A stretch of 64,000 bases of DNA, from NCBI GenBank assembly GCA_000505065.1, contig AWSN01000001.1, positions 559,929 to 623,928 on the forward strand, in the 5' to 3' direction. A program made the position numbers and the translations under genes. Positions within the stretch are counted from its first letter, which is position 1; each line of letters opens with the position of its first letter. Below, piece after piece: positions 7,731-58,588 of the stretch. The notes under the pieces are model-generated. The model was not told where the DNA came from. It was given only the letters and a program-made list of their open reading frames with translations, and ran no database searches. The stretch is from Parcubacteria bacterium RAAC4_OD1_1. Its GTDB lineage: Bacteria; Patescibacteriota; Minisyncoccia; Phycocordibacterales; UBA9973.

Positions 7731-7774
7731 GATTTGAAAGTATAAATAAACTTTTGTTGTGATATAATTATAGG

Positions 7775-37815: not shown

Positions 37816-37968
37816 GTTTGATATCAAGAGTATGGCGAGAGTACTGGCTCGAAGACCCATCAGCAACCCTTAGAAATAAGAAGGTGCTAAATCCAGCCAA
37901 TAGCAGAAATGTTATATGGAAAGATAAGACTAGTCATCTATCTTTCCTCATTATGAGGAATTTTTTAA
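37816..37968 (+). promoter_or_regulatory. Second SAM-I riboswitch (~90% identical to the metK copy) with terminator
   Basis: ATATCAAGAGTATGGCGAGAGTACTGGCTCGAAGACCCATCAGCAACC...GGTGCTAAATCC...AAGATAAGA; terminator cctcAttatGagg+T6 carries compensatory changes versus cctcTtattaGagg in copy 1. Confidence 0.75.
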
Positions 37969-38142: not shown

Positions 38143-39204
38143 ATGAAAAAAATGAAAGTATTAGATCTTTTTTCTGGTGTTGGTGGTCTTAGTTATGGTT
38201 TTAAAATGGCAGGTTTTAATATCGCAGGAGCGATAGATTTTGAAAAATCATTTGTTGAATCAATGAAAAAAAATCATTCACATACAGAAGTATTTTGGGG
38301 TGATATAAGAGATATAGAACCAGAAAAAGTAAAAAATAAAATAGGAAATATTGATATTATAGTGGGAGGTCCACCATGCCAAGGTTTTTCTCTTAAGGGA
38401 CAAAGAAAAGGTCTTGAAGATGAAAGGAATTTTTTATTTAAAGAATACATAAAATATATAGCTTACTTTAAGCCGAAGTTTTTTGTTATGGAAAATGTTC
38501 CTAACATTCTTAGCGAAAAAGATGGTTACTTTAAAGATCAAATATTAAAAGAATTTAATAAATTAGGATATAAGGTTACATATGGTATTTTAAATGCTTC
38601 GGATTTTGGTGTTCCTCAGAACAGAAGAAGGGCTATTTTTTTAGGAACAAGATTAAAAAAAGAAATTGAACTCCCAAAGAGAATTATAAAAGAAAAAGTT
38701 ACAGTTTGGGATGCTATTTCTGATTTAGCATATTTGGATTCCGGAGAAGGATATTTTGAATCAAATTACAAGACAAAACCATTATCAGAATATCAAAAAA
38801 TATTAAGAAAAAATTCTAAAAAATTATTTAATCATCAAGCAACAAATCATTCAGTCATAGCAATTGATAGATTAAAACGAATACCACCAGAGAAAGGAAA
38901 AGAGTATTTACAAGAAAGGATATCTTCTACTTTTGGTCAAACATGGGGAAGATTGGAAAAAAATAAGCAGAGCCCAACAATTGTTACAAGATTTGATACA
39001 CCTTCAAATGGAAAAAATTCTCACCCTTTCTTAAATAGAGCAATTACCCCTAGAGAAGCTGCTAGAATACAATCTTTTCCAGATCATTTTATTTTTTATG
39101 GTAATAAAACATCAGTAAATAAACAAATAGGTAATGCTGTTCCTCCTTTGCTTGGCAAAGCTATAGCAGATAGTATAATAAAGTATATAAGACAAAATAA
39201 TTAG
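38143..39204 (+). CDS. DNA (cytosine-5)-methyltransferase
   Basis: 353 aa; DLFSGVGGLSYGF, GGPPCQGFS, ENV, QIGNAVPP. Confidence 0.9.
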   Translation: MKKMKVLDLFSGVGGLSYGFKMAGFNIAGAIDFEKSFVESMKKNHSHTEVFWGDIRDIEPEKVKNKIGNIDIIVGGPPCQGFSLKGQRKGLEDERNFLFKEYIKYIAYFKPKFFVMENVPNILSEKDGYFKDQILKEFNKLGYKVTYGILNASDFGVPQNRRRAIFLGTRLKKEIELPKRIIKEKVTVWDAISDLAYLDSGEGYFESNYKTKPLSEYQKILRKNSKKLFNHQATNHSVIAIDRLKRIPPEKGKEYLQERISSTFGQTWGRLEKNKQSPTIVTRFDTPSNGKNSHPFLNRAITPREAARIQSFPDHFIFYGNKTSVNKQIGNAVPPLLGKAIADSIIKYIRQNN

Positions 39205-39208
39205 TTTT

Positions 39209-39850
39209 ATGATAAACCAAGTACACAACATAGATGCCTTGAAATTACTAAAAGCTATTAAAGATAAATCAATTGATCTTTTTTTAACAGATATCCCTTA
39301 TGAAAAAGTTAATAAAAAATCAAATGGCTTAAGAAAATTGGACAAAGAAAAAGCTAACACAAAAACATTTGAATTGAAAGATTTTCTTGTTCAGGTAGAT
39401 AGAGTAACAAAAGGAAGTGGATATATTTTTTGTGGAAAGGAACAAGTTTCTATAATTTTTGAATTCTTTGACCAAAAGAAATACACAACAAGATTAATGA
39501 TCTGGGAAAAAACAAATCCAAGTCCAATGAATTGTCAATACTCATGGATGAGCGGAATTGAAACTTTTATTTATTTTAAGAAACCGAACGCTACGTTTAA
39601 TGAACATTACAAAAATAGTGTTTTAAGATTCCCGAATGGTCAAAGCAAGAAACATCCAACAGAAAAACCATTAAAATTATTTAAATATTTAATAGAAGTT
39701 AGTTCTAATAAGGGTGATTTAGTTTGTGATCCATGTGTAGGTTCTGGTACTACAGCTGTAGCTTCTAAAATGCTAAGTAGAAATTTTTTGGTTGGTGATA
39801 TTGATGAAAATTATTGTAAGTTAACACAAAAGAGACTAATTATTAGTTAA
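39209..39850 (+). CDS. Beta-class N4-cytosine/N6-adenine DNA methyltransferase
   Basis: 213 aa; N-terminal LTDIPYE (motif IV variant of DPPY), C-terminal motif I VCDPCVGSGTTAVAS. Confidence 0.7.
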   Translation: MINQVHNIDALKLLKAIKDKSIDLFLTDIPYEKVNKKSNGLRKLDKEKANTKTFELKDFLVQVDRVTKGSGYIFCGKEQVSIIFEFFDQKKYTTRLMIWEKTNPSPMNCQYSWMSGIETFIYFKKPNATFNEHYKNSVLRFPNGQSKKHPTEKPLKLFKYLIEVSSNKGDLVCDPCVGSGTTAVASKMLSRNFLVGDIDENYCKLTQKRLIIS

Positions 39851-39861
39851 TTTTTTATTTT

Positions 39862-41028
39862 ATGATAAATATTAATCAATTATTAAATAAACCAATTGAA
39901 ACCTTATTAGCAGTTTTTTTTAATACCACTAAAAATAAAGAAAATAATTTTGAAGTATGTTCAAGATATCGTCAAACTAAATTTGCTAAATTACCTAAAA
40001 ATTCATATGAACAGACAGCTATTAGTTTATCAAATAAATATAAATTAAATTTCAATTCTAATGGAAAAGGGTTAATTATTTCAATTATTAATAATAATCA
40101 TAATTATGATCTTAATGATTTTTTAAATGTCGTTTATGATTCAATTGTTGTTAAGTTAAATAAATTACCTAGTAATTATTTACTTGATGTTGAAATAGCT
40201 TTAGCTCTATTTATGTTTCGTGGAAGTGTAGATTTTAATAGGAGTTTTTATTCTGTTGATTTAAAAAATCCCACAAAGGATTACATTGATAATTTTTTTA
40301 AGGTTCTTTTATCATCAGATGATTTATTATCTCGTCTAAATTTAAATTTCCGCGAATTACAACCCCAATATGTTGAAGGTAGAAATTTAAGAAACACACA
40401 AGTCAGAATAAACTTAAAGTGGTTTTATGATAATGTGATATTAAATTTTAGTAATATTAATAAATATAAAACAGATATTTTTTTTAAAAATATTGCGAAG
40501 TTAGGAGAAATAAGAAAATATAATATTTTTGAAGAAAGAATAATATTATATAAACAATCTATTTTTGGTAGAAAATTAAATAAAAATGAAATAAATAAAC
40601 TTAGAAATGAATTACAATTTAGTTTAAATGATGAACAAACTAAGGGTAATAAATTTTCTATTAGAAATCAAAAAATTGTTTCTTACGCAAGAGAAATATT
40701 TAATGATGTTTGTGTTGGTTGTAATTATACTTATAATATTAAAGATCGTTCTTTTAAAATGCCACGAAACGATAGATATTATTTTGAGATAAATCATGTT
40801 ATTGCTTATTCTAGTGATTCTGTTGTGGTAGATGTATTAGATAATTTAGTAAAACTTTGTCCTACTTGCCATAGAGCTTTAACACCTGGAAGAGCTTATG
40901 AGGAATTACAAAAAACAATTATAAAAAATATGTTAAATTCTAGAAAAGAAGTAAGTAGATTTGTTGATTTAATGAAACCAAAAGAATTTAAGTCGTCTAT
41001 TGATTATGTATATAAAATGTTGAAATAA
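39862..41028 (+). CDS. Putative HNH-family restriction endonuclease
   Basis: 388 aa after two methyltransferases; C-terminal CVGCNY...YFEINHVIAY...KLCPTCHRAL (C-x2-C / H-N-H / C-x2-C). Confidence 0.6.
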   Translation: MININQLLNKPIETLLAVFFNTTKNKENNFEVCSRYRQTKFAKLPKNSYEQTAISLSNKYKLNFNSNGKGLIISIINNNHNYDLNDFLNVVYDSIVVKLNKLPSNYLLDVEIALALFMFRGSVDFNRSFYSVDLKNPTKDYIDNFFKVLLSSDDLLSRLNLNFRELQPQYVEGRNLRNTQVRINLKWFYDNVILNFSNINKYKTDIFFKNIAKLGEIRKYNIFEERIILYKQSIFGRKLNKNEINKLRNELQFSLNDEQTKGNKFSIRNQKIVSYAREIFNDVCVGCNYTYNIKDRSFKMPRNDRYYFEINHVIAYSSDSVVVDVLDNLVKLCPTCHRALTPGRAYEELQKTIIKNMLNSRKEVSRFVDLMKPKEFKSSIDYVYKMLK

Positions 41029-42919: not shown

Positions 42920-43032
42920 CGCTTGGTGATGATCGCAGTGTTGTTTTGTTAGCAGACAAAACCACGAGGGGTGGACTGCGAAAATTTCGAGCTACGGCGA
43001 GAAATTATTTGTAGTCACAAGATTGTAAGGAC

Positions 43033-43070
43033 GAGCAAGCAAACTGCTTTGCTTGCGTGCAGGAATCGAA
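43033..43070. repeat. Second copy of the 27-nt hairpin element fused to an inverted tRNA-Arg T-arm fragment
   Basis: gagcaagcaaactgctttgcttgcgtgCaggaatcgaa; 37/38 nt identical to 27522-27559; minus strand reads ttcgattcctgc + acgcaagcaaagcagtttgcttgct. Confidence 0.7.
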
Positions 43071-43200
43071 AACCTTAAACTTAATATTTGAAATTTAATA
43101 ATTTCAAATATTAAGAAAGGTCTACTGTTCTCGTAGAGAAAGATATCCTACCGGAATTATAAATTAAAAAAAGACCAAACTGGTCTTTTTTATATTTTTC

Positions 43201-45421: not shown

Positions 45422-45508
45422 GGAAGCGTGGCTGAGTGGTTTAAGGCACTTGTCTTGAAAACAAGGGACTATGAAAGTGGTCCGTGAGTTCGAATCTCAC
45501 CGCTTCCG
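45422..45508 (+). tRNA. tRNA-Ser (anticodon TGA), long variable arm
   Basis: Acceptor ggaagcg/cgcttcc, D-arm gctgagtggtttaaggc, anticodon loop cTTGAaa, variable arm ggactatgaaagtggtcc, T-arm gagttcgaatctcac. Confidence 0.8.
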
Positions 45509-45578
45509 CAGGAAAAATAAAGTATCGGAAGACTCATAGGCATATATTTTGATATGTCTATTTGTTTTTTCAACTATT

Positions 45579-45854
45579 CTAAAGATTAGCTCTTAACCAA
45601 TTAACAACTTCTGGTTTAAGATTTAAGCTACCCCAATCTTTACCTATTTCTATAACAAGTAATTTATCATTTGAATGCATTAATGGTTGTAGTCTTCTAG
45701 CTATATCTATCGCTGTTAAATCACTTTTTATTATAAAAACAGATTCAAGTGGTTTAGACCAATATGCAACTTTAGTTATTGCATTTCTTAGATTTTGATA
45801 AGAAGTTATAGGTTGTCCACCTATTAAATCATATGATATTAAATAATTTTTCAT
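45579..45854 (-). CDS. Cas2/VapD-like small protein (putative endoribonuclease fold)
   Basis: 91 aa; MKNYLISYDL...SVFIIKSDLTAIDIARRL...LLVIEI follows the Cas2 pattern (YDI...SVFEC...RRL...VRIY); no cas1 or array nearby. Confidence 0.35.
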   Translation of the reverse strand: MKNYLISYDLIGGQPITSYQNLRNAITKVAYWSKPLESVFIIKSDLTAIDIARRLQPLMHSNDKLLVIEIGKDWGSLNLKPEVVNWLRANL

Positions 45855-45855
45855 T

Positions 45856-46779
45856 TTAATTAGTTACTTGTTCATTATTTAATAAAGATGAGTCAACCCC
45901 GACCACAGAGGACCCCACAACAACTTCATTTTCTACAATCTCTTTTTCATTATCAAACAACGGAACATAATTCTTTTCTGTTATATATTTTATAAATTCT
46001 TCTAAATTTAGAATCGAAAACAATTTACCTGATTTATCATGAAACTCTTTTACTAAAGATCTTCTTGGAAAAATTTTATCATTTCTCTTTTTTTCTTCCC
46101 AAAAATCATCTTTAGTTTCCTCAGTAACAAGAATTATTGGTTTTGATAAATTTTCTGAATAATCAAGTATCTGAAACCATGCTATTGTATCACCATTACT
46201 TTTACCAATATCTGATACCCCAGGTTGTTTTTTAATTCTTGCTCTTTTATTTATCTCCGATTCTATTGCTGATTTTTTATCATCATCATAATCATTCCCA
46301 ATTTTATCTTTTAAGATTTTTTCTAATCTTTTTAAAATTATGTCATTTTCTGGTTCTCTCCAGTCAGGATTACATTTATTTTTATTAATTTTATTTTTTT
46401 GTCTAGTGATTGTATTTTGTAAATCTTTTACTATAGAGTCTATTTTAAGAGTAAAATGCTCTTGATCATTAAAATAACTTGAATATAAGTCTTTTTCTAA
46501 TGAATCTAATTTCCCAATAACTATTTCTTTTCTTTTAAATTCTTGGTCAATTCTATCTTTTCTATTCTTATAGAATTCACTACAGAATTGATAAGGTATC
46601 CAAACTCTATCTTTTTTCGATAAATCATCCATCATTTTTAAAATAGAATTTCTCTTTTTATTCTTATATCCATACAATCTCAAAAGAGCACACGCATCAA
46701 ATACAAAAATTGCATTTTTCTTCATTCGGATTAATTCTTTCTTTGTTGGGTGATAATATTCCCAAAAACTATCTTTCAT
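45856..46779 (-). CDS. PIN-like nuclease domain protein (split PIN with long insertion)
   Basis: 307 aa; N-terminal AIFVFDACALLRLY and C-terminal PIILVTEETKDDF. Confidence 0.5.
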   Translation of the reverse strand: MKDSFWEYYHPTKKELIRMKKNAIFVFDACALLRLYGYKNKKRNSILKMMDDLSKKDRVWIPYQFCSEFYKNRKDRIDQEFKRKEIVIGKLDSLEKDLYSSYFNDQEHFTLKIDSIVKDLQNTITRQKNKINKNKCNPDWREPENDIILKRLEKILKDKIGNDYDDDKKSAIESEINKRARIKKQPGVSDIGKSNGDTIAWFQILDYSENLSKPIILVTEETKDDFWEEKKRNDKIFPRRSLVKEFHDKSGKLFSILNLEEFIKYITEKNYVPLFDNEKEIVENEVVVGSSVVGVDSSLLNNEQVTN

Positions 46780-46781
46780 AA

Positions 46782-46955
46782 TTATATTTTTATTTTAATA
46801 ATTTTACCCTTATTTTGACAATTTCCGTTTGTACATTCAAATTCAAAATATCCATTCCATTTATGTGCAGATTGCCCTTCTTCCATTTTTCTAGCAAATG
46901 GACCTATTTGATGCATTAATTCATTACATTTTTCACAGTTAATATTCTGTTCCAT
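46782..46955 (-). CDS. Possible 57-aa zinc-ribbon protein
   Basis: MEQNINCEKCNELMHQIGPFARKMEEGQSAHKWNGYFEFECTNGNCQNKGKIIKIKI; CxxC...CxxxxC. Confidence 0.3.
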   Translation of the reverse strand: MEQNINCEKCNELMHQIGPFARKMEEGQSAHKWNGYFEFECTNGNCQNKGKIIKIKI

Positions 46956-46996
46956 GTGTCTAATTATAGAACAAATATAGATTTAATTAAATACCC

Positions 46997-47548
46997 CTAA
47001 ATTATATTAATAATTCCATCCATCATCTTAATCTTTGATTTAAAGCATCCCATTAATTCTCTCTTCTCTTCATTTGAACCACTTCTGAGCACATACTTGG
47101 CGTAAGTTTTAAGATTAATTTCCTTATGCTTTTTATTTGAATTATTTATCTCAAGTACTCCTTTATTAAAATTATTTATCCTCTTCGATTCTTCTTCAAA
47201 CTTAATTTGCAATCCAACATCATTCACATCTATTTTATCTATCAACTTTATAAGTTGCTCTATTAACTCTTCTTCTCTTAAATATTCATTCTTACAGTGC
47301 CTATCTTTCGATCTTCCACATCCATAATAAATATATTTAGCTACCGTTCCATTCTTAAGTTTTTTGTATTTCTCTTCAGCTGATATTCCAGAACCACATA
47401 AACCACAGGTCATTAATTTAGTGAATGCAAACTCATGATTCTCTCTTAATTGCTCTTTTGCTTCCTTATTCCACCTTCTTGGATTATACTCACAAGGTTT
47501 TAGAGTATTAATGTCTGCATACTCTATTTTCAAGTTATCTTTCGACAT
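46997..47548 (-). pseudogene. Truncated large serine recombinase (only C-terminal zinc-ribbon/coiled-coil part; catalytic N-domain missing)
   Basis: LMTCGLCGSGISAEEKYKKLKNGTVAKYIYYGCGRSKDRHCKNEY = recombinase zinc-beta-ribbon motif; 183 aa is far too short for an intact enzyme. Confidence 0.55.
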
Positions 47549-47635
47549 AATGTTTTTAAAATTAAACTAATAAATCGTGAGGCCTTCACGATTTAAGTAA
47601 AACATAATGCAAAATATCATTTGGAAACTAGTGAA

Positions 47636-48337
47636 CTACTTTTTTCCAAGTTTCTTAAAACGAATTTTTCTGGTTGATTCTAATTTTCTAGGAATATCAT
47701 AAATATCTTTTGTCTTTATTTTCTTTCCAGTATCTGCTTTAACATTTTCTGCAATTTCTTTTGCACTTAATCTATATTCCTTGAAAGATTCTGGGTCACA
47801 AACATTTCTATTTTTATAATATTTTTCAACAACTAATTTTGGCTCAATATTTTTCAATGGTCTTATTTCATTCAAATATTTATCAAAATAATCATTTGTT
47901 ATTTCTTTTAACTTAATTAAATCTTTATCTGTTAATTTTTCGTGTACCTTTACATTCACAGATTTTTTATTTTTATCCAGCCAGAAAGAAAAAGGCGGAA
48001 TTGGATATTTAACTTTATTGAAATAAATAAAATGTTCAATTATTGAGGAATAATGTTCAGGTAAATTAAATTCATTGATTATCTCTTTGATTCCATCGGC
48101 TAATATATTAAGAGGTCTTTCTCCTTCGTCTAACTTAGTAATTATTTTTCCCATTAGCAATTGACTATATATTTCTTTATCTATATCATCGGTTTCTTCA
48201 CTAAACATTTCTTTCGGAATTCCAATACTTTTTCTTATATTCTCAACTTTTTCTATAAACTCATCCATGGAAAATAACAACAAAATATTGTCCATTTCTT
48301 TGCTTCCAAGACTTCTTTTATTCTTATTTTTCTTCAT
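47636..48337 (-). CDS. Hypothetical protein
   Basis: 233 aa, Lys-rich termini. Confidence 0.4.
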   Translation of the reverse strand: MKKNKNKRSLGSKEMDNILLLFSMDEFIEKVENIRKSIGIPKEMFSEETDDIDKEIYSQLLMGKIITKLDEGERPLNILADGIKEIINEFNLPEHYSSIIEHFIYFNKVKYPIPPFSFWLDKNKKSVNVKVHEKLTDKDLIKLKEITNDYFDKYLNEIRPLKNIEPKLVVEKYYKNRNVCDPESFKEYRLSAKEIAENVKADTGKKIKTKDIYDIPRKLESTRKIRFKKLGKK

Positions 48338-48417
48338 AACAGAATCTTATCATTATTTTAAATAAAGATTAATCATTAATAATTGGTTAATATGTCATTA
48401 TATGATAATATTTTCAT

Positions 48418-49248
48418 ATGAAAGAGAATATGCCATATAGAAATGATCCACCATTAAACATTAATGTATTTAGACATGGTGAATCAGAATATAAACAAAA
48501 AGATGTATCGATAGAAAATGCAAATGATTTAACCGAGAAAGGAATAGAAGATGTTAAAGATAGCGCGGTAAAATTATCTGAATTAATTAAACCAGAAGAA
48601 GAGGTTGAAATTTGGTCTTCACCTACAAGTAGAACATTACAAACTTCAAAAATAATTAGTGAGACACTAAAAAATAAAGGAATCCACATTAGAGAAAAGG
48701 GGTGTGATAACAATTTTGGAGTCAAAGTTTTTGATCAGCTATCTGAGGTAAAAAATTTTTCATGGAAGCTTTTTTATCCACTTGTTAATGGTGGTGATGT
48801 TGAATTCGAAGGAGAAAAGTTTCTTGTTGATAAAAAATTTACCAATCCACTTGATATTCATCTTAATGAATATTTTTCTAAAAATGGGATAGCTACCATT
48901 GATATAGATTATAAGAAAACATTACCCAGTAATTACGTAAAAGAAATAGATGGATTTGAAAAGTTTACAGATGCAGTAAGAAGAATTATCATACCGCTAT
49001 CAAGATTAAAAAAAATTAAAGATAAACCCTACCGTATAATCATGGTTACACATGATGTTTTTTCTGGATTTATTGCTAATATATTTTCTGCAGGAGAAGA
49101 TAGTGAAAAACATACTATTAATCCGGGAGAATTTATAAACATTGAACGGGATAATGATAAGTTAGTTGCTACTAAAGTTGGAGACTTTAGTGATGGAAAT
49201 AAAGATACTGATATAATTGAAGAATTTAATAATAAGTATGGTTCTTAA
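48418..49248 (+). CDS. Histidine phosphatase superfamily (phosphoglycerate mutase-like) protein
   Basis: 276 aa; NVFRHGESEYK (RHG catalytic motif), later H in TLQTS region. Confidence 0.55.
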   Translation: MKENMPYRNDPPLNINVFRHGESEYKQKDVSIENANDLTEKGIEDVKDSAVKLSELIKPEEEVEIWSSPTSRTLQTSKIISETLKNKGIHIREKGCDNNFGVKVFDQLSEVKNFSWKLFYPLVNGGDVEFEGEKFLVDKKFTNPLDIHLNEYFSKNGIATIDIDYKKTLPSNYVKEIDGFEKFTDAVRRIIIPLSRLKKIKDKPYRIIMVTHDVFSGFIANIFSAGEDSEKHTINPGEFINIERDNDKLVATKVGDFSDGNKDTDIIEEFNNKYGS

Positions 49249-50502
49249 TTATTTAAAATAAACTTTCCTAATTTTTGAGCCCAATAAAGAAGTAAAATAA
49301 TTTAAAAATTTATTATTACTTTTAGATACTTGATTTAAAGAGATTTTTTTATCATTATTTTTTACCAAAAAAACTCTCGTCCCTAAATTGCATTTATTTA
49401 TATTTGTTATATTTATAGCAAAATTATTAGAACTAATTAGCCCAAGATTATGAGTATGTTTTTTATTTAAAAAGACTGTTGCTTTTTCTGATAAATATCC
49501 TGTATTACCCCATCCTACAGGGATAGTGGCAACCTTTAATTTTTGTTTTGCTACATATTTTTTAAAATATCCAATAGCATCACCCTTACTAACATAATTT
49601 ATATCTGTTATGTGTGTTATCACTGATGAAATAATAGGATTATTTAAAAATCTACCTTTCTTATCTTGAAGAGTCCCATAAATAAGACACCCTGGTCTTA
49701 CAAAAACCTTAACACCAGGTAGAATATCATTAAATATTTTTTTATTATAAGATTTTTTAAAATTAATAATAGCAGAACTATTGGCACAATGTATTGATGA
49801 AATTTTTATCTTACTATAAGATACTTCCTTTAAAATATGTAAAAATTTATCAAACTGAATAGCTGTAAATTTTTTATCTTCGGCATCAGTAAAATGAGTC
49901 CACAAACTTTCTATTTTTATAAAGCTTAATTTAGAAGTATTATGAATTAATTTAAATGCTTTATTTACATTAACACCATATCGATTTAATCCAGTATTAA
50001 TTTGGATATGAACTTTTGCTATTTTATTTTTATCTTTTGCTATTTTATTTAATAAAACCATTAATTCATAAGAGCTAACAGTAATTTCGACATCCAAATC
50101 TAAAAGTTTTGAAAAATGATCATAGAATGGTGGATAAAGCAAAATAATAGGTGTTTTTATTTTATTTTCTCTGAGAATTATGGCTTCATCTATAGAACCA
50201 ACAGCAATTTTATCTGTGCCTAACTTTTCTAATATTTTAGCTATTGGTACTAACCCATGTCCATAAGCATTGGCCTTCAGAACAGAAATTATTCCTATGT
50301 TTAAACCAACTTCACTTGATATTTTTTTATAGTTTTCTTCTAATTGATATAAGTTAATATTCATCCAAGTTAATGGTAAATTATTTTTTTCTATTATTTT
50401 GCTTTTAATATTTTTATTAAAATAATTGTTTATATCAGTATTCCCTCTGATACTGAATAGGCCCCCGTCTTCTTTCTCATAATAAATATTTTCTTTAATC
50501 AT
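49249..50502 (-). CDS. Alanine racemase-family PLP enzyme
   Basis: 417 aa; ISVLKANAYGHGLVPIAKIL (PLP-Lys in the KANAYGHG motif). Confidence 0.7.
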   Translation of the reverse strand: MIKENIYYEKEDGGLFSIRGNTDINNYFNKNIKSKIIEKNNLPLTWMNINLYQLEENYKKISSEVGLNIGIISVLKANAYGHGLVPIAKILEKLGTDKIAVGSIDEAIILRENKIKTPIILLYPPFYDHFSKLLDLDVEITVSSYELMVLLNKIAKDKNKIAKVHIQINTGLNRYGVNVNKAFKLIHNTSKLSFIKIESLWTHFTDAEDKKFTAIQFDKFLHILKEVSYSKIKISSIHCANSSAIINFKKSYNKKIFNDILPGVKVFVRPGCLIYGTLQDKKGRFLNNPIISSVITHITDINYVSKGDAIGYFKKYVAKQKLKVATIPVGWGNTGYLSEKATVFLNKKHTHNLGLISSNNFAINITNINKCNLGTRVFLVKNNDKKISLNQVSKSNNKFLNYFTSLLGSKIRKVYFK

Positions 50503-50514
50503 ATTAATAAAAAA

Positions 50515-51732
50515 TTAATCAAAACTATAATAAATATTCTTAAATCGTGAATTAAATTTAATTACGTTGTTTTTAATATTTTTCCCTTTTAGTGAATCAT
50601 CTATAAAAATAGCTATTTCTTCCATATCTTTTTCCCTCATACCTCTTCTTGTGATTTCTTGTGTGCCAAGCCTGATAAATAATCTATTCCCCAATCTGTC
50701 ATCAAAATTAGTTGATATATTATTCTTAACAAGGTTGTTGTATGTTTTCTTTCTATTACCAAAATTATCTATATACAAATGAACCTGATGATTTAATGAA
50801 TACAAACCGTCAGGCGTTCTCCTTACTTCATAACCAAGACTTTCTAAACTCGCCCCTAGCTGATTAGAATTTTTTATAATTTGTTTCGCATACTCTTTAC
50901 CATATTTTTTCATTTCAAGAATGGATATAGATAATGATATAAGATGATGTGTATGAGAAGAAGAAACCAGTCCTTTGCTAATAACATCATTTACTTTCTT
51001 GGCTAATTTTTTATTTTTAAAAGCAATTAATCCTTTTTGTGGCCCTGGAAGAGTTTTGTGTGTATTTGCACAAATAATATCAGCTCCTTCTTTGAGAGGT
51101 GATTGAAATTGCCCACCCATCATTAAACCTATTGTGTGGCTTGCATCATATATAATAATAGCCTTATTGCCTAATGATTTTCTTAGTACCTTAATATTTA
51201 TTGGATTAATACAATATGAGATATCTAAATATAATAGTTTACACTTTTTTTCTTTAAAAATATCCTTAATTTTTTTACTATCAAAATCTAAAGATTCTAA
51301 ATTAAATGGGGCATAGACATATTTTCTGCCAGTTCTTTTTAAAATGTGACTTGTTGCAAAATGCCCTCCATCTTTATGTGCTACAATCATTACAGTATCA
51401 CCTGGATTAGATAAAGAAAGTATAGCGCACATCATTGCATGCACACCAGAAAGACAAAGTGGTGTAAAACTCTCACAGTTTATCATTTTTTTCATTGATG
51501 AATTTGCTTCATCTATTAAATCCTGAATATCTTTAAGTCCAAGACATGTGAAAGGATTCCAATCTATAATTCCTTTTACACCTGAACCAAAGAAATATCT
51601 CTCAGATAATTTACTGAATAAAAAGCCATTGGCTGTCTCAGAAAGCTGATTTTCATATGCAGTTAAATGCAAGAAATTACTATTCCTTTTTTCTAACTTT
51701 TTTATATTACTAATTAATTTATTTATTTTCAT
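50515..51732 (-). CDS. Serine hydroxymethyltransferase-like (SHMT/threonine-transaldolase fold) PLP enzyme
   Basis: 405 aa; ANTHKTLPGPQKGLI matches SHMT TTHKTLRGPRGG PLP-lysine motif; otherwise diverged. Confidence 0.55.
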   Translation of the reverse strand: MKINKLISNIKKLEKRNSNFLHLTAYENQLSETANGFLFSKLSERYFFGSGVKGIIDWNPFTCLGLKDIQDLIDEANSSMKKMINCESFTPLCLSGVHAMMCAILSLSNPGDTVMIVAHKDGGHFATSHILKRTGRKYVYAPFNLESLDFDSKKIKDIFKEKKCKLLYLDISYCINPINIKVLRKSLGNKAIIIYDASHTIGLMMGGQFQSPLKEGADIICANTHKTLPGPQKGLIAFKNKKLAKKVNDVISKGLVSSSHTHHLISLSISILEMKKYGKEYAKQIIKNSNQLGASLESLGYEVRRTPDGLYSLNHQVHLYIDNFGNRKKTYNNLVKNNISTNFDDRLGNRLFIRLGTQEITRRGMREKDMEEIAIFIDDSLKGKNIKNNVIKFNSRFKNIYYSFD

Positions 51733-51735
51733 AAC

Positions 51736-53112
51736 TTATATTTTTACGTATAAAATCATTAACTTATTGCTATTTCGCATTTTTATAAGTACATTTTTAA
51801 TCTCTTGTAAGCTAATCTTATTATAATCAATTTCAATCTTATCTATTTTTTTATCAATATTATAAATACTGGAAATTAATTTTTGCCCACCAGTGGAAAC
51901 AGAACCATTATTATCTATAACAATAATCCCCATTGAAATCTTTCTAGAAACAGCTTCAGATAGTGCTTGAATTCCGCTATGTAAAAAAGAAGCATCCCCA
52001 GTAATACAAAATGGATATTGAACTCCCCCTAAAACAAGACCAATGCCATTCCCGACAGAAGATCCTAAACATAGGCAAGAATCAATCACATGTGTCGATT
52101 CAACTGTGAATTGTCCTACGTCACCAACTACAAAACTTGGTTTTATAGATTTAATTGCTTTAAATAATTTAGATAAATTATCCCAAACAATCCAATTCTT
52201 AGATTCATCAGAAATAATTTTAATCTTTGATTTTAGGACCAGATTCTTATTTTTGTTTTGAATTAAATTCTCAATTTTTTTGAAGACTAAATCATCTCCT
52301 TGTTCAAGAACAACAACTTCATTTTTTTTATTAATAAATTTTTGAATTGTTTTTTTGGGGATGGGATATGTTTCAATAAATAATTTATCCCAGTATTTAT
52401 ACTTTTTTAAATATGACTCCTCTAATGAAGCCCCAACAGCTATAACACCTAATTTACTTTTTTTATATGGTATATACTTTATAAATTTATCAACAAAATT
52501 ATCGATCTCAATATTTTTTTGGTCTAATCTTTTTTTCTGTTCTAACCAATAATTTGGGTAAATTATATATTTATTACTATTTTTGGATATCTTTATTTTA
52601 TCTAATTTTATTTTGTCTAATTTTTTATAATCATCAATTAAATTAAAAAAATTATTTGTAAGACGTATAACAACAGGAGTATCATATTTTTCTGATAAAT
52701 AAAAAGACTGTCGTGCAATATTATATGCAGAATTTAATGAATTAGGCTCAAACCACATCCCACCAAAGAAATCATGGTAATGCCTTGAATCTTGTCTTTC
52801 TTGTGATGCAACAACATCAACATCTTCTGTAATAACAATAACCATCCCCCCATTAACTCCAGATAATAATGAATGTAAAAATGGGTCAGATGCAACATTT
52901 AGCCCAATATTTTTTATTGTTAAAAGACTTCTTTTTCCTGACAAACTAATCCCATAAGATATATCAAAAGCTACTCTTTCATTCAATGATATTCTATCCC
53001 CGTTAAGATTATCAAAAATTTCATGACTATAAAAACCTGGGAAATTTATAACATTATCAACTCCGCCATCAATAAAACCGTCACACAATGTTTTTATAGA
53101 TTTTTTAATCAT
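51736..53112 (-). CDS. Thiamine-pyrophosphate-dependent enzyme (2-keto-acid decarboxylase/sulfo- or phosphonopyruvate decarboxylase-like)
   Basis: 458 aa; C-terminal TPP-binding fold GDVGQFT...ITGDASFLHSG...IDNNGSVSTGGQ. Confidence 0.55.
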   Translation of the reverse strand: MIKKSIKTLCDGFIDGGVDNVINFPGFYSHEIFDNLNGDRISLNERVAFDISYGISLSGKRSLLTIKNIGLNVASDPFLHSLLSGVNGGMVIVITEDVDVVASQERQDSRHYHDFFGGMWFEPNSLNSAYNIARQSFYLSEKYDTPVVIRLTNNFFNLIDDYKKLDKIKLDKIKISKNSNKYIIYPNYWLEQKKRLDQKNIEIDNFVDKFIKYIPYKKSKLGVIAVGASLEESYLKKYKYWDKLFIETYPIPKKTIQKFINKKNEVVVLEQGDDLVFKKIENLIQNKNKNLVLKSKIKIISDESKNWIVWDNLSKLFKAIKSIKPSFVVGDVGQFTVESTHVIDSCLCLGSSVGNGIGLVLGGVQYPFCITGDASFLHSGIQALSEAVSRKISMGIIVIDNNGSVSTGGQKLISSIYNIDKKIDKIEIDYNKISLQEIKNVLIKMRNSNKLMILYVKI

Positions 53113-54584
53113 ATTTCAATTTTAGATTTTATTAATGGGCTATCATTATTTTCAAAATTAATATTTGATTTATAAATTAAACTCATTATTTTTGCGGGAA
53201 TATCATGTGATGTTATATTAGACAACATAGAATTTATATCAATAAAACCTCCTAAATAATTTAAAAATTCTAATATCACCAATTCTTTTGCGGTTTCATG
53301 AAATAATTTATTATCCTGAAAGTCATTTTCCTTATCTAAATCTTTGAGATTATAAACTTTTAATGGTAATTCATCTTTGCTAAACATTTTTGCATTTCTA
53401 AAAACATAAATATCAAAATGATTATTCCCCCCTAAATTATAATCGTGAACAGTATTTTTATCTTGCATATCATTAGATTGATAATTATGTATTTGTATAC
53501 ACTGAAATGGACCTTGTTGTATATAATAATATTGATGCTTTACTCTTCCGTTTCCTTTATATAAATCATCATTGGGCTTAATCCATGCTCTTCTTGAAAA
53601 ACTGTTGTGAAGTAAATTTACTGATATATTACAAATATTTATATTATTTTTTGTTAATTTTATATTAGAAAAAATATCTATTTCCCCATAGTTTTTATAT
53701 AGTTCTTTAAGCTCTATTTCATCTCTTCTTTTACATTTATTATAAACTTCTTTACCAAAATAATTCTCATAATCTTTTTGCCCAAATTGAACCAATAAAC
53801 CTTCTGGATTAAGAAAAGATGAATATACCTCTATTCCATCTGGTTCTTTATCTTTTACTAAACCATTTTTATAGAGTTGCCAAATTATATCAAAAATATG
53901 ATAACTACTATGTGACCCCTTACCATAACCCAAATTATATGGATGATATGTTTGTTCAACTATTTCATCTGGAAATATCCATACCCCATCTGAGTGCATT
54001 GCCTGTATTGATGTTACTGGTGCATTAAATTTTTCTGAAACTTCTTTAATTAAATCAAATACTTTTAAATATCCTTTTTCATATCTTCGCTGTACATTTA
54101 TAGAAAAAACTGTTTCTTTTTCTTTTTGTAATTTTAAATAAGCTTTCAGTATTTCCTCATAGTCATCATAAATACCATCAGCCTGTTTTATATTATGACT
54201 AACATTTTTTCTTGTTGAAATTGGTTTATCCATTAAAATATTTAAACCTTGACTAATTGCCCATAATGCATAACTTTTATGAGCTAATGGTTCCGTAGAA
54301 ATAACAACACCTGTTATATTATTTTCTTTAACAGCAATAGAAAGTAAATCTCTGTTTTCTTCTGATAATTCTTGAGTATTATCATAATCCTCAATGTAAA
54401 ACATTTTTAGGTTAAAATTATTAGAATCAAGATAGTCTTCTATATTATTTTTTTTACTTTTAAAATCTACTCCTAATTTTAAACAAAAAGGCATATTATC
54501 CATATGTTTAAACAATGTTGGAATATAAATTCTCTTTGCATGCAATCCAACCCCTATTATCATTATGTTATTACATATGGGCAT
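53109..54584 (-). CDS. Gfo/Idh/MocA-like NAD(P)-dependent oxidoreductase
   Basis: 491 aa; N-terminal Rossmann IMIIGVGLHAKRIYIP. Confidence 0.45.
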   Translation of the reverse strand: MPICNNIMIIGVGLHAKRIYIPTLFKHMDNMPFCLKLGVDFKSKKNNIEDYLDSNNFNLKMFYIEDYDNTQELSEENRDLLSIAVKENNITGVVISTEPLAHKSYALWAISQGLNILMDKPISTRKNVSHNIKQADGIYDDYEEILKAYLKLQKEKETVFSINVQRRYEKGYLKVFDLIKEVSEKFNAPVTSIQAMHSDGVWIFPDEIVEQTYHPYNLGYGKGSHSSYHIFDIIWQLYKNGLVKDKEPDGIEVYSSFLNPEGLLVQFGQKDYENYFGKEVYNKCKRRDEIELKELYKNYGEIDIFSNIKLTKNNINICNISVNLLHNSFSRRAWIKPNDDLYKGNGRVKHQYYYIQQGPFQCIQIHNYQSNDMQDKNTVHDYNLGGNNHFDIYVFRNAKMFSKDELPLKVYNLKDLDKENDFQDNKLFHETAKELVILEFLNYLGGFIDINSMLSNITSHDIPAKIMSLIYKSNINFENNDSPLIKSKIEI

Positions 54585-54670
54585 ATAATATATAGTAACT
54601 ATATCATTATCTGTTAAAAATTAAAATGTATACCTTATGTTGTTGATTGGCCATATGATATAATTACTAA

Positions 54671-55660
54671 ATGAGTAAACATGATATTTATATTAAAAAA
54701 ATTATAAAATTTAAAGTTGGTGGTAATCTATTGAAATCTAAAAGAATATTGGGTGGACATAGTGGTTATGTATATGCAGTTAGCGTAAAATTAAATTCTA
54801 ATATAAATGAATACATCATAAAATTATCAAATATAATAGGTTCAAAATCATTGAGGGATGAAAAAAATGAGCAACGAGTATATGGAGGTCATTCAAAAAG
54901 TCTAGCTAAGGTTCATAATCTTCTTAAAAAGAAAAATTTAAAAACATTTACTTTAATATCACACTCGTTACCAAACAAAGAAATACCATATTTCTACCAA
55001 TTAATTTCTAAATTAAATGGATTTTCTGTGAGAGAACATTTAGTGATTAATAATATTAATAAAAAAGAATTATTTGAATTAGCTGGTGTTGAATTTGCTA
55101 AATTACATTTAATAACAAGAAATTATGACGGTTGGGTGGAACAAGATACTCCATATAATATAAGCTGGGAGGAATCTTTTTTTTCAGCATTAGATTTTAG
55201 ATTAAAATATTTAATAGAAAATAAATATTTTAATGACAAAGATTCAAAAAAATTAATTCATTTTATTAAAAATAAAAAAATAAAATGGACGTCACCCAAA
55301 GAATATGTTTTTTCTCATGTGGATGGGTTACAAGGGATGGTTGAGTATAAAAAAAATAATTGGATATTTAATGGACATATTGATTTAGAAGATTATAGAT
55401 TTACTGATCAAAGATTTGTTTTAGCTGGATTTGAAATTGGAGCAAATTATTCAACAAAAGAAGCTCCTATTAATTTTTGGGACGGTTATTTAAAATTTAA
55501 AAAGATAGATAAGAGTTACCATGAATTAAAAGATTTATTTAAAGTATTTTACTTTATGTCTTGGATACATATGACTGCTCTTAGTTTAAAAAATGATAAA
55601 TTGTCTCGAAAAATAAGTAAAATTTATATTAAAAAAATAAAGATATTAATGATTAAATAA
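54671..55660 (+). CDS. APH/choline-kinase-like phosphotransferase
   Basis: 329 aa; catalytic loop FSHVDGLQGMV (HxD..) and NGHIDLEDY (metal-binding D). Confidence 0.5.
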   Translation: MSKHDIYIKKIIKFKVGGNLLKSKRILGGHSGYVYAVSVKLNSNINEYIIKLSNIIGSKSLRDEKNEQRVYGGHSKSLAKVHNLLKKKNLKTFTLISHSLPNKEIPYFYQLISKLNGFSVREHLVINNINKKELFELAGVEFAKLHLITRNYDGWVEQDTPYNISWEESFFSALDFRLKYLIENKYFNDKDSKKLIHFIKNKKIKWTSPKEYVFSHVDGLQGMVEYKKNNWIFNGHIDLEDYRFTDQRFVLAGFEIGANYSTKEAPINFWDGYLKFKKIDKSYHELKDLFKVFYFMSWIHMTALSLKNDKLSRKISKIYIKKIKILMIK

Positions 55661-55757
55661 ATGATATGTCTTTATCCTTAGAATCAGCTCAAAATTATTT
55701 AGAAAAAAGAAGTAAAAGTTGTCATAGATAGACAACTTGGTTCTCCTCATCCAAAAT

Positions 55758-56171
55758 ATGAATATAATAAAGAAAATAAAAGAATTAAATTTACCCAAAG
55801 ACCAATATATAGTTGTTGGTAGTGGTATTTTAGACATGTTAGGAATTAGAAAATCTAATGATATAGATATTGCAGTTACAAAAGATTTATTCGATAAAAT
55901 GAGAAAAACTGATGAATGGGAAGAAGTAGAAAAATACAATAAAATTTTTCTCAAAAAAGAAGGTTTTGATATTATCCCTCAGTTAGATTGGGAAAATTAT
56001 ACCACCACCACAGAAGAAGCAATATCTAGTGCTTTAATAATAGAGGGTATTCCATTTATGAATTTAAATGAACTTATTAAATTCAAAACTGCATTAGGAA
56101 GAGAAAAAGATTTTAAGGACATAGAACTTATTAAAGAGTATTCAACTAAGAAACTAGAAAAAAGGCCTTAG
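55758..56171 (+). CDS. Pol-beta-superfamily nucleotidyltransferase (ANT/Lnu-like)
   Basis: GSGILDMLGIRKSNDIDIAV = GS...DxD nucleotidyltransferase motif; likely start MNIIKK. Confidence 0.5.
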   Translation: MNIIKKIKELNLPKDQYIVVGSGILDMLGIRKSNDIDIAVTKDLFDKMRKTDEWEEVEKYNKIFLKKEGFDIIPQLDWENYTTTTEEAISSALIIEGIPFMNLNELIKFKTALGREKDFKDIELIKEYSTKKLEKRP

Positions 56172-56488
56172 CGTGTCGCATTTGTCGCATTTTTGGTAAA
56201 AGAGCTATAGATAGCAATAAACGAAGAGTGACTCACAGGGCTAATTTAGAGTCCTTTAAATGTGTTAAAATACCTTTACAAGGGTTGAACTCGTGGGTAC
56301 TGAACTCACATGGCCCGCAATAAAATAACGAACCCAATGTGAAAACATTGGGTGATTTATTTTATAGGAGAATGGTGGATTCGAACCGAGGGCTTGCGAA
56401 GCCTGCGGTAGCGGAAAGCCCGAGTGGGGGTCGAACGAGTGAGATATTTTATGAATGAGAATAAAATAAAATATCCACGAGAGTGACC

Positions 56489-56521
56489 GAATCTCACCGC
56501 TTTCACAGAAAAATAAAGTAT
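56489..56521 (+). repeat. Decayed attR-like repeat of the tRNA-Ser 3' end plus 17 nt of downstream flank
   Basis: 30 of 34 positions identical to 45492-45525. Confidence 0.6.
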
Positions 56522-56567: not shown

Positions 56568-57551
56568 ATGAAAGAATTATTAAAAATAAACAAGGTAGAA
56601 AATATTGATAATGAGGAAAAAAATACCCCAGAGTTAGAACAGAACCCTGATTTAGCTAATGCTGCATATGAAACTTTAGGTTTTAAAGGAAAAGATTTTG
56701 TTTATACTTCTGAATTAATAGATGAGGTTATCGAAAAACCTGATTTTGAAGAATTATTACCGGTTGCTCAAATTTTTAAACATAAAGATAGAATAAATCA
56801 TACCAAAGTTTTTTTGGGTAAAAATGTTCGATCGGTAAATTTTTTAAATCAAAACACAATAGCTCTTGGTCAAACAACAAATTTTATAGAGAATAATAAA
56901 ATAGCCAATAATATTTTTGTTTTTGATAAAAAATATTACGAAGCACTAGGTAAACCTGAAAGAGAAAGTCAGCAGTCCACTTTATTACACGAAGAGATAC
57001 ACAGATATACTTCATTTATAATTGGAGAATATAAAAAAATAGCCAAATTCCCTGGTATTGAATATTGTGAAAAATTTAAGGAACATTTTAATTCCCTTGG
57101 TATTCATGATGTGTCTTTAGAAATTGAATTCTTAAAAGAATATTTTAACTTATTTGAAATATATAAAAATCAAGGAGGATGGCTTAATTCAATTGAGTTT
57201 ATTACATATGGGTTAACAAATAAAGGAGGGGTTGATTTTCTAAAAAATATTAGATTGCATGGCAGAGAACTTTCTAAAAGGAGTCAAGATTCACTTAATA
57301 ATCTCACACTATATGATGCTCTATTAGATTTATTTAAATATTACTATACAAACTTATCTGATGATGTTTATGCTTCTTCTACAGATACAGTTAAGTTAAA
57401 ATTTGACAGCGTTTTAGTATCTACAGAACAAAAAAATAAAGCTGAGCAAATATATTTAGAATATATAAAAACTTTAGCAAGTAAAAACGATATAACAAAA
57501 GAAGGATTTATCGATTTTATAAAAACAAAAGAATTAGGTTCACATATTTAG
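56568..57551 (+). CDS. Hypothetical protein with HExxH (putative zinc metallopeptidase) motif
   Basis: 327 aa; STLLHEEIHRYTSF. Confidence 0.35.
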   Translation: MKELLKINKVENIDNEEKNTPELEQNPDLANAAYETLGFKGKDFVYTSELIDEVIEKPDFEELLPVAQIFKHKDRINHTKVFLGKNVRSVNFLNQNTIALGQTTNFIENNKIANNIFVFDKKYYEALGKPERESQQSTLLHEEIHRYTSFIIGEYKKIAKFPGIEYCEKFKEHFNSLGIHDVSLEIEFLKEYFNLFEIYKNQGGWLNSIEFITYGLTNKGGVDFLKNIRLHGRELSKRSQDSLNNLTLYDALLDLFKYYYTNLSDDVYASSTDTVKLKFDSVLVSTEQKNKAEQIYLEYIKTLASKNDITKEGFIDFIKTKELGSHI

Positions 57552-57655
57552 CTTATTATCTTTAAAATATACTAAAATACTATACAGGGTTTGAGTTTGT
57601 GGGTATCGAAATCACCACCTCCGTAATTATATAATCTTTATGTTATAATATATCT

Positions 57656-58453: not shown

Positions 58454-58543
58454 TCCTAGTTTATAGACTCTAAAATACCCTTATTAACATTAGTATCGTA
58501 AGTACTGAACCCATATGGCTTGTATTTAAATTTTACTATTTTA

Positions 58544-58574: not shown

Positions 58575-58588
58575 AAATTAATTTTTAT

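Follow-up and report, generated by a model that had tools for sequence, protein, structure and literature searches.

We analysed 64,000 nucleotides of the genome of Parcubacteria bacterium RAAC4_OD1_1 (GenBank assembly GCA_000505065.1, contig AWSN01000001.1, positions 559,929 to 623,928); this whole stretch is called the window, and positions are counted within it. We found that the DNA behind its tRNA-Ser(TGA) gene is probably a deletion-scarred, immobile phage-like element of a large serine recombinase (LSR), in which a 35-nt direct repeat containing the tRNA 3' end marks two insertion junctions and not the two ends of one island. The evidence for this reading comes from a truncated recombinase gene fused to the start of a ParB-like gene, from a conserved motif of ~90 nt, from empty and occupied sites in related genomes, and from intact members of the same element family at tRNA-Ser.

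A truncated recombinase fused to a ParB-like gene start

The recombinase-like open reading frame (ORF) of the element encodes 183 aa (46997-47548, minus strand). An earlier note, made from the sequence alone, had described it as the C-terminal part of a large serine recombinase, which is right for the zinc-ribbon part, the C-terminal third of an LSR, and wrong for the first ~36 codons, which are those of a ParB-N/DNA methyltransferase (ParB-MTase) gene fused in frame to the LSR part. Pfam Zn_ribbon_recom (PF13408) matches residues 42-102 (E 2.3e-9), residues 103-183 align with the C-terminal region of relatives, and the ORF matches the PHROG integrase family phrog_95; a PDB sequence search with the ORF returned no match. 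Among relatives drawn from 1.8 billion representative proteins, the full-length ones have 425-446 aa, and their tblastn alignment to the window (47000-47482) starts at their residue ~285. The LSR part (46997-47440, minus strand) covers residues ~285-431 of these proteins, that is, the zinc ribbon and the C-terminal region. The resolvase catalytic domain with its serine nucleophile (PF00239) has no Pfam match in the ORF, and neither has the Recombinase domain (PF07508), which is present in the more complete homologs P0002 and P0004. When searching the whole window by tblastn with five full-length or nearly full-length relatives (P0120, P0121, P0123, P0127, P0130), we found no N-terminal or frameshifted LSR remnant better than E 0.04 in any frame; this frameshift-aware check shows that an intact recombinase frame is absent and that the gene is truly truncated, as had been proposed. 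Additionally, Pfam, PHROGs and PADLOC revealed no other recombinase in the ORFs of at least 50 aa between 45.5 and 60 kb. With its recombinase truncated the element is unable to move itself, which bears out its earlier description as immobilised.

The N-terminal part of the ORF (47441-47548, minus strand) holds the first ~36 codons of the ParB-MTase gene and ends at the deletion junction. Residues 1-36 (MSKDNLKIEYADINTLKPCEYNPRRWNKEAKEQL) match the ParB-like PHROG family phrog_620 (E 0.007), the N-terminus of the database protein P0020 (59% identity, E 1e-8) and, by tblastn, the starts of ParB-N/N6_N4-methyltransferase genes in a dozen loci, L123, L184, L139, L110 and L186 among them (up to 61% identity, E 1e-10). 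These ~36 residues include the NPR motif, a complete ParB_N domain has ~90 aa, and Pfam ParB_N has no match in the 183-aa ORF. Relative to L093, a more complete copy with 88% protein identity, DNA similarity starts abruptly at the junction, beside an A-rich microhomology. The database proteins P0020 and P0096 are further ParB::LSR fusions, each with a different junction, and such independent fusions are to be expected if ParB-MTase is the first and the LSR the last gene of the prophage. Judged by these matches, the ORF is best read as a ParB-MTase::LSR deletion scar that lacks the catalytic domain.

For the remnant compared with the L093 copy, the ratio of nonsynonymous to synonymous substitution rates (dN/dS) is 0.044 and dS is 1.55; nearly all of their divergence therefore took place under purifying selection. 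Since the two copies differ in their truncation points, the low ratio is no proof of selection on the fragment itself. The truncation scar is young relative to the divergence of the two copies. The island had also been called old, and with an intact remnant ORF and a dN/dS this low its age is not established.

A conserved motif and the insertion junctions

We compared the window with the loci around a conserved malic-enzyme gene in 80 related genomes. In the closest relatives, HIT and tRNA-Ser(TGA) are followed by DUF5652 and RuvX within ~40-300 nt; in L007, where the tRNA is oriented as in the window, a terminator alone separates tRNA-Ser from DUF5652, and homologs of DUF5652 and RuvX are adjacent in L011, L016, L022 and L028 as well. 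The same native flank stands in the window at 59986-60690 (DUF5652 59986-60219, minus strand; RuvX 60226-60690, plus strand; Pfam). The DNA behind tRNA-Ser is thus inserted and is absent at the empty sites of related genomes, in agreement with its designation as an island, and window-specific DNA extends from 45510 to ~59950, or 14.4 kb, against 11 kb between the repeats. This DNA contains three element remnants in tandem, the first spanning about 10.8 kb (~45510-56319). The GC content is 26.0% in the element versus 30.2% in the 45 kb upstream.

The ~90-nt motif occurs in three plus-strand copies in the window by profile search, at 56230-56319 (nhmmer E 5e-20), 57541-57625 (E 1.2e-12) and 58445-58524 (E 3e-12), each 9-85 nt past the stop of a plus-strand ORF; the third is followed by a bidirectional terminator (58538-58578). 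Copy 1 (GACTCACAGGGCT ... TGTTAAAATACC ... GTGGGTACTGAACTCACATGGCCCGCA) is the proposed attR1, supplying its P arm. A stretch of ~55 nt at 56262-56320 is repeated at 57560-57615 and 58471-58519 and in other genomes, and a degenerate pattern places the motif in at least 120 metagenome loci (L096-L215), often at contig ends, while a scan of viral contigs gave 1 match, the IMG/VR contig L092. The extended motif has the order tandem 8-10-mer, GACYCACnTGCCT, TGCTAAAATACCCTTAC, a small variable hairpin and cGTGGGTACTnAACCCaaGTGGCCCGCA. The tandem repeat lies ~40 nt upstream of many motif copies and is locus-specific, both of its copies changing together (GTCTCATTT twice or GGCATTTGTT twice at other loci); in the window it is the 9-mer GTCGCATTT, present twice at 56175-56192 on the plus strand as part of the extended att region, and it may be a paired protein-binding site. 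The last 28 nt of the motif imitate the T-arm and the acceptor 3' strand of tRNA-Ser, with 17/28 positions identical by eye to the tRNA 3' end and the same G-CA end. Furthermore, among the motif matches listed that have a tRNA within 1.5 kb, 21/27 adjoin tRNA-Ser (P ~1e-17, against a background of 4/45), and the copies next to tRNA-Ser are nearly all co-oriented with it, 330-1135 nt downstream.

Other identities of the motif were considered. An integron attC site was rejected because the palindrome is absent, with a single stem of 5-6 bp supported, and because IntI is absent; a promoter and leader of the next gene was rejected because several copies precede a terminator or a convergent gene. 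In Rfam, no family covered the motif at the gathering threshold, the families found being tRNAs, LOOT and SAM riboswitches.

At the proximal end, the tRNA-Ser(TGA) gene is intact at 45422-45509 on the plus strand, as ARAGORN and Rfam (tRNA, 58.2 bits) agree, so that its earlier placement at the island edge holds; it is the B arm of a proposed attL1. Directly behind it lies a P'-type arm (45510-45570, plus strand) consisting of an A-rich spacer, GTATCGG (45522-45528), GACTCATAGGCAT (45531-45543), and then a hairpin and a T-run. When surveying the fetched loci, we observed that 28/85 tRNA-Ser genes are followed by an A-rich spacer, GT(A/T)TCGG, 2-3 nt and GACCCGAGTnCCT. The spacer/GTATCGG/GACYC block, at 45510-45543 in the window, also occurs behind 19/121 motif copies and 4/48 tRNA-Arg genes, and behind 0 for most other tRNAs. 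The empty sites (L007, L011, L013, L015, L016, L019, L022, L025) carry neither the motif nor the GTATCGG/GACYC block, having plain terminators, and in integrated examples the block is on the LSR side only, with a plain terminator behind the motif side. We infer that the tRNA-Ser flank in the window, GGAAAAATAAAGTATCGG...GACTCA, is P' rather than host sequence.

The metagenome contig L112 has 84% DNA identity to window 48379-55761 and carries the enzyme block, a nucleotidyltransferase gene and the motif, and the 3' half of motif copy 1 is identical to L112 over 35 nt. Directly behind the motif, L112 (8624-8693) is 83% identical to window 45506-45575, the flank of tRNA-Ser. The element ends that are contiguous in L112 would be those expected for attP. 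The joints are P+P' in L112, P+B' at window 56319 and B+P' at window 45509, which is the pattern expected of attP x attB, with the crossover in or next to CCGC(A). The distal end of the window element has motif copy 1, a terminator and a structured RNA that we call class B, which is the native order with the motif in the place of the tRNA, as expected for attR; the intrinsic terminator (56332-56365, plus strand) is read, from its sequence and the order in relatives, as B', the original tRNA-Ser flank. The sequence homologies, the gene orders, the empty and occupied sites and the P+P' joint of L112 are direct observations. The two junctions have CCGC(A) alone in common in the window, L130 and L186, and CCGCAGAG in L213. 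So short a core fits a serine integrase, since serine integrases leave a short common core; one study (PMC9303363) reports a serine-integrase prophage with an 8-bp common core next to two tyrosine-integrase prophages with 17 and 39 bp.

Intact members of the element family

An unbiased clustering of every ORF up to 5 kb from the motif, at 120 metagenome loci among the matches listed, recovered the genes that accompany it. A ParB-N plus DNA methyltransferase gene is present in 18 of these loci, always upstream of the motif and on the opposite strand, and the terminase small subunit (TerS, 10 loci) and large subunit (TerL, 5 loci) have the same position and orientation. A full-length LSR is present in 10 loci; in 7 of them it lies downstream of the motif and on the opposite strand, the median distance being 358 nt. 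These identities were confirmed by Pfam and PHROGs (TerL, phrog_38, E 1.8e-66).

Several loci display the whole arrangement. L186 has tRNA-Ser(tga), a convergent LSR (419 aa, all three domains), ~7 kb, a TerS-like gene, ParB-MTase and the motif. L130 has tRNA-Arg(gcg), a DUF5673-like gene, tRNA-Ser(tga), a convergent LSR, the motif and RuvX, and so presents the host context of the window with an intact integrase. In L014, among the closest relatives, a TerS-like gene, ParB-MTase and the motif abut HIT, at the site occupied in the window; L213 and L054 are additional integrated examples. The layout of the window, with the LSR 3' end convergent to the tRNA 3' end and its P'-type block, is that of L186, L130 and L054. 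Further LSRs of the clade are convergent to tRNA-Ser(act), tRNA-Arg(gcg) and tRNA-Asp(gtc) genes. ParB-MTase, motif and LSR are contiguous in L123, L184, L163 and the IMG/VR contig L092, and these loci are attP or tandem copies. With ParB-MTase first and the LSR last in one co-oriented block, an interior deletion gives a fusion of the ParB N-terminus to the LSR C-terminus.

The LSR element family is widespread in Patescibacteria. Our literature search for cassettes of Patescibacteria, LSRs of the candidate phyla radiation and serine integrases with a tRNA attB returned nothing directly relevant, and an LSR family that targets the tRNA-Ser end with a tRNA-mimic att arm, together with its tandem single-gene remnants, appears to be undescribed.

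Two side observations concern the tRNA-Ser genes at such loci. ARAGORN calls many tRNA-Ser genes with the unusual anticodon ACT beside tRNA-Ser(GCT) (L035, L036, L043, L045, L049, L054, L057, L059, L081 and others). In L081 (11300-11650, minus strand) the first ~17 nt of tRNA-Ser (TTGGAAGCGTGGATGAG) are duplicated ~90 nt upstream, just past a motif copy.

The 35-nt repeat and a tRNA-like RNA

Copy 1 of the repeat (45491-45525, plus strand; CGAATCTCACCGCTTCCGCAGGAAAAATAAAGTAT) combines the last 18-19 nt of the tRNA with the first 16 nt of the element-type flank. Copy 2, the proposed attL2 (56488-56521, plus strand), combines the 3' end of the class-B RNA with 15 nt of P'-type spacer and stops after GTAT. 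The repeat had been given as 17+17 nt recurring at 56489-56521 with 3-4 mismatches; it exists, its coordinates are off by 1-2 nt, and the copies differ by 2 mismatches and one 1-nt gap. Aligning the two copies, as had been suggested, gave a local alignment score of 53, far above chance, given that 30 shuffles of the window reached 31 at most. An ungapped search allowing 3 mismatches recovers copy 1 alone, missing copy 2 because of the 1-nt gap. The view that the repeats are the two ends of the island has to be given up: copy 2 belongs to a native tRNA-like RNA, and the distal junction is the motif at 56230-56319. As copy 2 is native, and normally stands behind tRNA-Ser in island-free relatives, the 35-nt repeat is not an attL/attR pair; a repeat that contains a tRNA end is, taken alone, no proof of attL and attR. 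We also considered copy 2 as a decayed full tRNA and rejected it, as neither ARAGORN nor Rfam (E up to 10) places a tRNA there.

The class-B structured element (56367-56507, plus strand) is 140 nt long with 49% GC, compared with 29% for the window, and its 3' strand is the tRNA-derived part of copy 2. Its minimum free energy has a z-score of -5.8 versus shuffles (56275-56512), the tRNA-derived strand pairing with an upstream complementary strand. The order tRNA-Ser(TGA), terminator, class B is native in seven relatives (L008, L013, L015, L016, L022, L023, L025). The 3' end of class B repeats the tRNA 3' end in L016, L022 and L023, with a near-copy in L025, and in L022 ~17 nt of flank are copied too, so that tRNA and class B share ~33 nt where the element is absent. 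The class-B copy of L023, directly after tRNA-Ser, is orthologous to window 56367-56507. Upon aligning ten class-B members, we observed the invariant blocks G(A/G)GATTCGAA and GTACTG..CTGTAAG, and 18/20 pairs of the RNAalifold structure show compensatory changes. Class B sits ~45 nt behind tRNA-Ser, tRNA-Lys or tRNA-Arg(GCG), its 5' strand complementary to the tRNA 3' end, and the window holds further elements of this type at 27515-27670 and 43029-43155. No Rfam family matched class B, and a tmRNA or another known RNA family was rejected for class B and for the motif after ARAGORN and Rfam returned no match; this covariation-supported tRNA-like RNA family, absent from Rfam, appears to be undescribed. 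Copy 2 is a pre-existing paralog of the tRNA end and not a product of the first integration.

In a separate pair of relatives, the tRNA-Ser flank of L017 (7297-7420) equals the flank of the class-B element of L016 (8180-8470); by this comparison L017 has lost class B, apparently through recombination between the two tRNA 3'-end copies.

The 15-nt flank of copy 2 (GAAAAATAAAGTAT) is of P' type and ends after GTAT, which suggests that copy 2 is the attL of another element, a sister of the first that has been deleted almost entirely. Behind it follow a 327-aa ORF, motif copy 2, a 265-aa ORF, motif copy 3 and the terminator. The 327-aa ORF (56568-57551, plus strand; HExxH by eye, no family match), which would be the single-gene remnant of the second element, shows no homology to the ORF at the same position in L036; the 265-aa ORF (57656-58453, plus strand), with an ART-PolyVal ADP-ribosyltransferase domain (PF18760, E 5.6e-9), would be the third remnant, and motif copy 3 the end of a third element.

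The repeat could also be native throughout, with tRNA-Ser and the tRNA-like RNA sharing their 3' end and terminator by paralogy, one LSR element landing between them, and motif copies 2 and 3 arriving by other routes. The ~33 nt shared in element-free L022, flank included, favour this history, as does the comparison of L016 with L017, which shows that tRNA/class-B repeats recombine. However, the shared flank GGAAAAATAAAGTAT at copy 1 runs into GTATCGG..GACTCA, which is missing from all empty sites and present behind motif copies in unrelated samples, and copy 2 is followed by one ORF and then the motif, as tRNA-Ser is in 20 loci. We therefore consider a purely native repeat rather unlikely.

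Those 20 other loci, among the matches listed, have the layout of tRNA-Ser, one unrelated co-oriented ORF and the motif, with products that by eye are GNAT-like, SET, NUDIX, S-adenosylmethionine (SAM)-dependent methyltransferase, GIY-YIG, kinase and PurA-like. The same SAM-methyltransferase unit stands behind Ser-GCT in L119 and L183 and behind Ser-TGA in L196 and L207. One may imagine that the tRNA-like RNA is a spare landing pad behind tRNA-Ser, tRNA-Lys or tRNA-Arg which phages with a tRNA-mimic attP exploit, and that the single-ORF units are LSR-mobilised cassettes gathered by an integron-like capture; we hold this to be a doubtful proposal, and maximal deletion of an LSR element accounts for the units just as well.

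Proposed history and alternative explanations

We return to the reading of a deletion-scarred LSR element, whose history can be outlined as follows. The element would have been integrated by its LSR at the extreme 3' end of tRNA-Ser. In the intact form, the LSR would be convergent to the tRNA on the attL side and ParB-MTase, TerS and TerL would lie by the ~90-nt arm on the attR side, with all four genes of intact members on one strand. A deletion from about codon 36 of ParB-MTase to about codon 285 of the LSR may then have removed the whole phage body, and indeed Pfam and PHROGs reveal no TerS, TerL or structural genes in the window. It would have left the in-frame 183-aa chimera without a catalytic domain, making excision by the element's own enzyme impossible, while the att-proximal cargo presumably survived, a PIN_8 set by the LSR end and the enzyme block by the motif. 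Copy 1 of the repeat would be attL1, the tRNA end joined to the P' arm of the element, and copy 2 attL2, the 3' end of the native tRNA-like RNA joined to the first 15 nt of the P' arm of a sister element. The tRNA-like RNA would thereby have served as a second landing site, with motif copies 2 and 3 marking two single-gene remnants. From the homologies and joints we infer catalysis of the integration by the LSR, a crossover in CCGC(A) and this order of events.

Several points weigh against this history. The attB, attP, attL and attR pieces are drawn from different species, with no matched set from a single one, and when viral contigs were scanned for exact copies of the tRNA-Ser end with its flank there were 0 matches. 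The P+P' joint of L112 is followed by a class-B RNA, so the contig may be chromosomal and the joint secondary, and the loci with the motif beside the LSR (L123, L184, L163) may represent prophages in tandem instead of attP. Additionally, the class-B sequence profile missed window 56367-56507, whose membership comes from its orthology to L023 and a similar fold, and the P' origin of the copy 2 flank is an interpretation set against the natively shared flank of L022. Finally, 8.7 kb separate the ParB start from the motif in the window, versus 0.4-2 kb of variable DNA in other members, and the enzyme block may for this reason be a later insertion.

Domestication of the chimera, which would be retained and expressed, for example as a DNA-binding decoy against sister phages or as a regulator of neighbouring defence genes, seems very improbable to us. 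It would agree with the intact ORF and its dN/dS of 0.044 versus L093, with three independent fusions being in frame, and with the lack of the catalytic domain in all of the best 120 homologs. C-terminal LSR fragments on long contigs also adjoin defence genes: they precede Shedu, stand between Dcm/Vsr and CBASS, or lie in RloB/NERD neighbourhoods. The LSR-proximal spot is thus a hot spot for defence cargo. Against domestication, the junctions differ each time, as they would after random deletions; survivors in frame, or fragments that begin at an internal Met, are all that ORF callers pick up; the low dN/dS may predate truncation, the copies differing in their truncation points; and many of the truncated matches lie on short contigs.

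Very improbable, lastly, is a tRNA island of ~11 kb formed by a tyrosine integrase that was later lost, with the 35-nt repeats as attL and attR and the LSR fragment as unrelated debris: although a tRNA-end direct repeat does bracket most of the inserted DNA and the same window has a textbook case at tRNA-Lys, with a 49-nt repeat from the anticodon loop, a tyrosine recombinase was not found between 45.5 and 60 kb (Pfam, PHROGs, PADLOC), copy 2 ends a tRNA-like RNA that stands behind tRNA-Ser in island-free relatives, the native flank is back only at ~59950, 3.4 kb past copy 2, the 16 nt beyond the tRNA are of element type and are found behind motif copies elsewhere, and the LSR remnant matches intact members at tRNA-Ser in position and orientation.

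Cargo genes and other features of the window

Next to the P'-type arm lies a 91-aa cargo gene (45579-45854, minus strand) that matches phrog_1090 (E 1.3e-19), a PHROG without assigned function, and beside it a 307-aa PIN_8 protein (45856-46779, minus strand; PF18476, E 8.2e-38; phrog_9788, E 2.3e-46), between the LSR 3' end and attL. Of the PIN/Cas2-like pair named in the earlier note, the PIN member is upheld by this PIN_8 match, and the Cas2-like member is not: the 91-aa ORF scores 13.4 bits against Pfam Cas2 (E 0.091), below the cut-off of 23.8, it has no PDB or PADLOC match, and we saw neither a CRISPR array nor any other cas gene. In L004 (1813-2767), from another sample, the same element has its PIN_8 gene broken into ORFs of 48 aa and 258 aa, by decay or by assembly error. 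A Cys-rich ORF of 57 aa (46782-46955, minus strand) has no family match, and a 233-aa ORF (47636-48337, minus strand), upstream of the chimera and inside the element, has no confident one.

The enzyme block comprises seven genes (48418-56171; Pfam): a histidine phosphatase, an alanine racemase, a serine hydroxymethyltransferase (SHMT)-like pyridoxal-phosphate enzyme, a thiamine-pyrophosphate enzyme, a GFO/Idh/MocA-like oxidoreductase, a kinase-like protein and a DUF6036 nucleotidyltransferase. The kinase-like ORF has 329 aa, its motif being judged by eye; its size would fit an integrase, a candidate we rejected given the kinase-like motif and the lack of any integrase signal. In L112, which is from another organism, the block is kept as a unit (55-8074, 84% nucleotide identity) and is followed by the motif. 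The enzyme cluster travels there with the att arm of the element, which supports the earlier view of it as retained cargo, and by sequence comparison the block appears to be an unusually large cargo of the element lineage.

A gene for a secreted-looking protein of 402 aa (58589-59797, minus strand) separates motif copy 3 from the native flank. The protein combines a peptidoglycan-binding domain with a long, acidic repeat region (DUF4398/DUF1771), and the gene is missing at the loci of relatives. What surrounds tRNA-Ser also varies among other relatives. The tRNA-Ser(TGA) of L007 is opposite to that of L011, L016, L019, L022, L025 and L028 relative to HIT and malic enzyme, and such opposite orientations among close relatives imply at least one local inversion. 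The blocks behind tRNA-Ser in L008 and L013 were considered as integrase elements and set aside, as they hold copper-resistance genes and no integrase.

Elsewhere in the window, a 49-nt direct repeat (12615-12663 and 27432-27480, 48/49 identical) brackets ~14.8 kb and spans tRNA-Lys(TTT) from the anticodon loop to 6 nt beyond the 3' end. The sequence at 27.5 kb in the window stands immediately behind tRNA-Lys in relatives, and the repeat is a textbook att duplication of the tyrosine-integrase type, marking a probable second island. Rfam places a LOOT RNA at 22307-22430 (85.8 bits) and SAM-I riboswitches at 17077-17187 and 37818-37930. A restriction-modification-like cluster (~38143-41028, plus strand) with a Dcm-type methylase, an N6_N4 methylase and an HNH protein lies in a stretch of 22-27% GC upstream of tRNA-Arg(GCG); the equivalent tRNA-Arg of L070 has a full-length LSR convergent to it.

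Comparison with known systems

For an under-explored clade of LSRs, this family is a source of natural attB/attP pairs, and in genomes whose prophages have boundaries that are difficult to draw, the motif can mark where a prophage ends. In these genomes, orphan zinc-ribbon recombinase fragments and ParB::recombinase chimeras may be read as scars of prophage deletion.

Characterised serine integrases mostly target sites inside protein genes. Compared with serine-integrase phages of the phiC31, Bxb1, A118 and SPbeta type, the intact members described here share the Resolvase, Recombinase and zinc-ribbon domains (419 aa), an integrase gene at one end of the element, terminase genes, and a very short core, CCGC(A) here (cf. 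the 8-bp core in PMC9303363). They differ in that attB is the extreme 3' end of a tRNA (Ser, and in sister clades Arg-GCG and Asp-GTC), that one attP arm is a 28-nt look-alike of the tRNA T-arm and acceptor, and that the hosts are Patescibacteria.

Taken as a single locus, the window element is an ordinary decayed prophage. Like defective ('grounded') prophages and islands, it has lost its body and part of its integrase and has kept accessory or defence cargo close to the att sites; unlike them, its scar is an in-frame fusion of first and last gene, which has recurred independently (P0020, P0096).

Integron cassettes resemble the single-gene units in having a promoterless-looking co-oriented ORF that ends 10-50 nt before a site of ~90 nt, and in forming arrays of two or three, whereas the IntI-type tyrosine recombinase and the imperfect palindrome of attC are absent here. 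Tycheposons of Prochlorococcus reportedly integrate beside tRNA genes and stack there in tandem. Of these elements, 910/937 carry tyrosine recombinases and a minority an LSR (bioRxiv 10.1101/2020.12.28.424599); they are the nearest published parallel, the use of an LSR by a minority being a further likeness. They differ in their hosts, in relying mostly on tyrosine recombinases with a duplicated piece of tRNA as the distal mark, where the elements described here have LSRs and a conserved tRNA-mimic arm, and in gene content, which here includes ParB-MTase, TerS and TerL.

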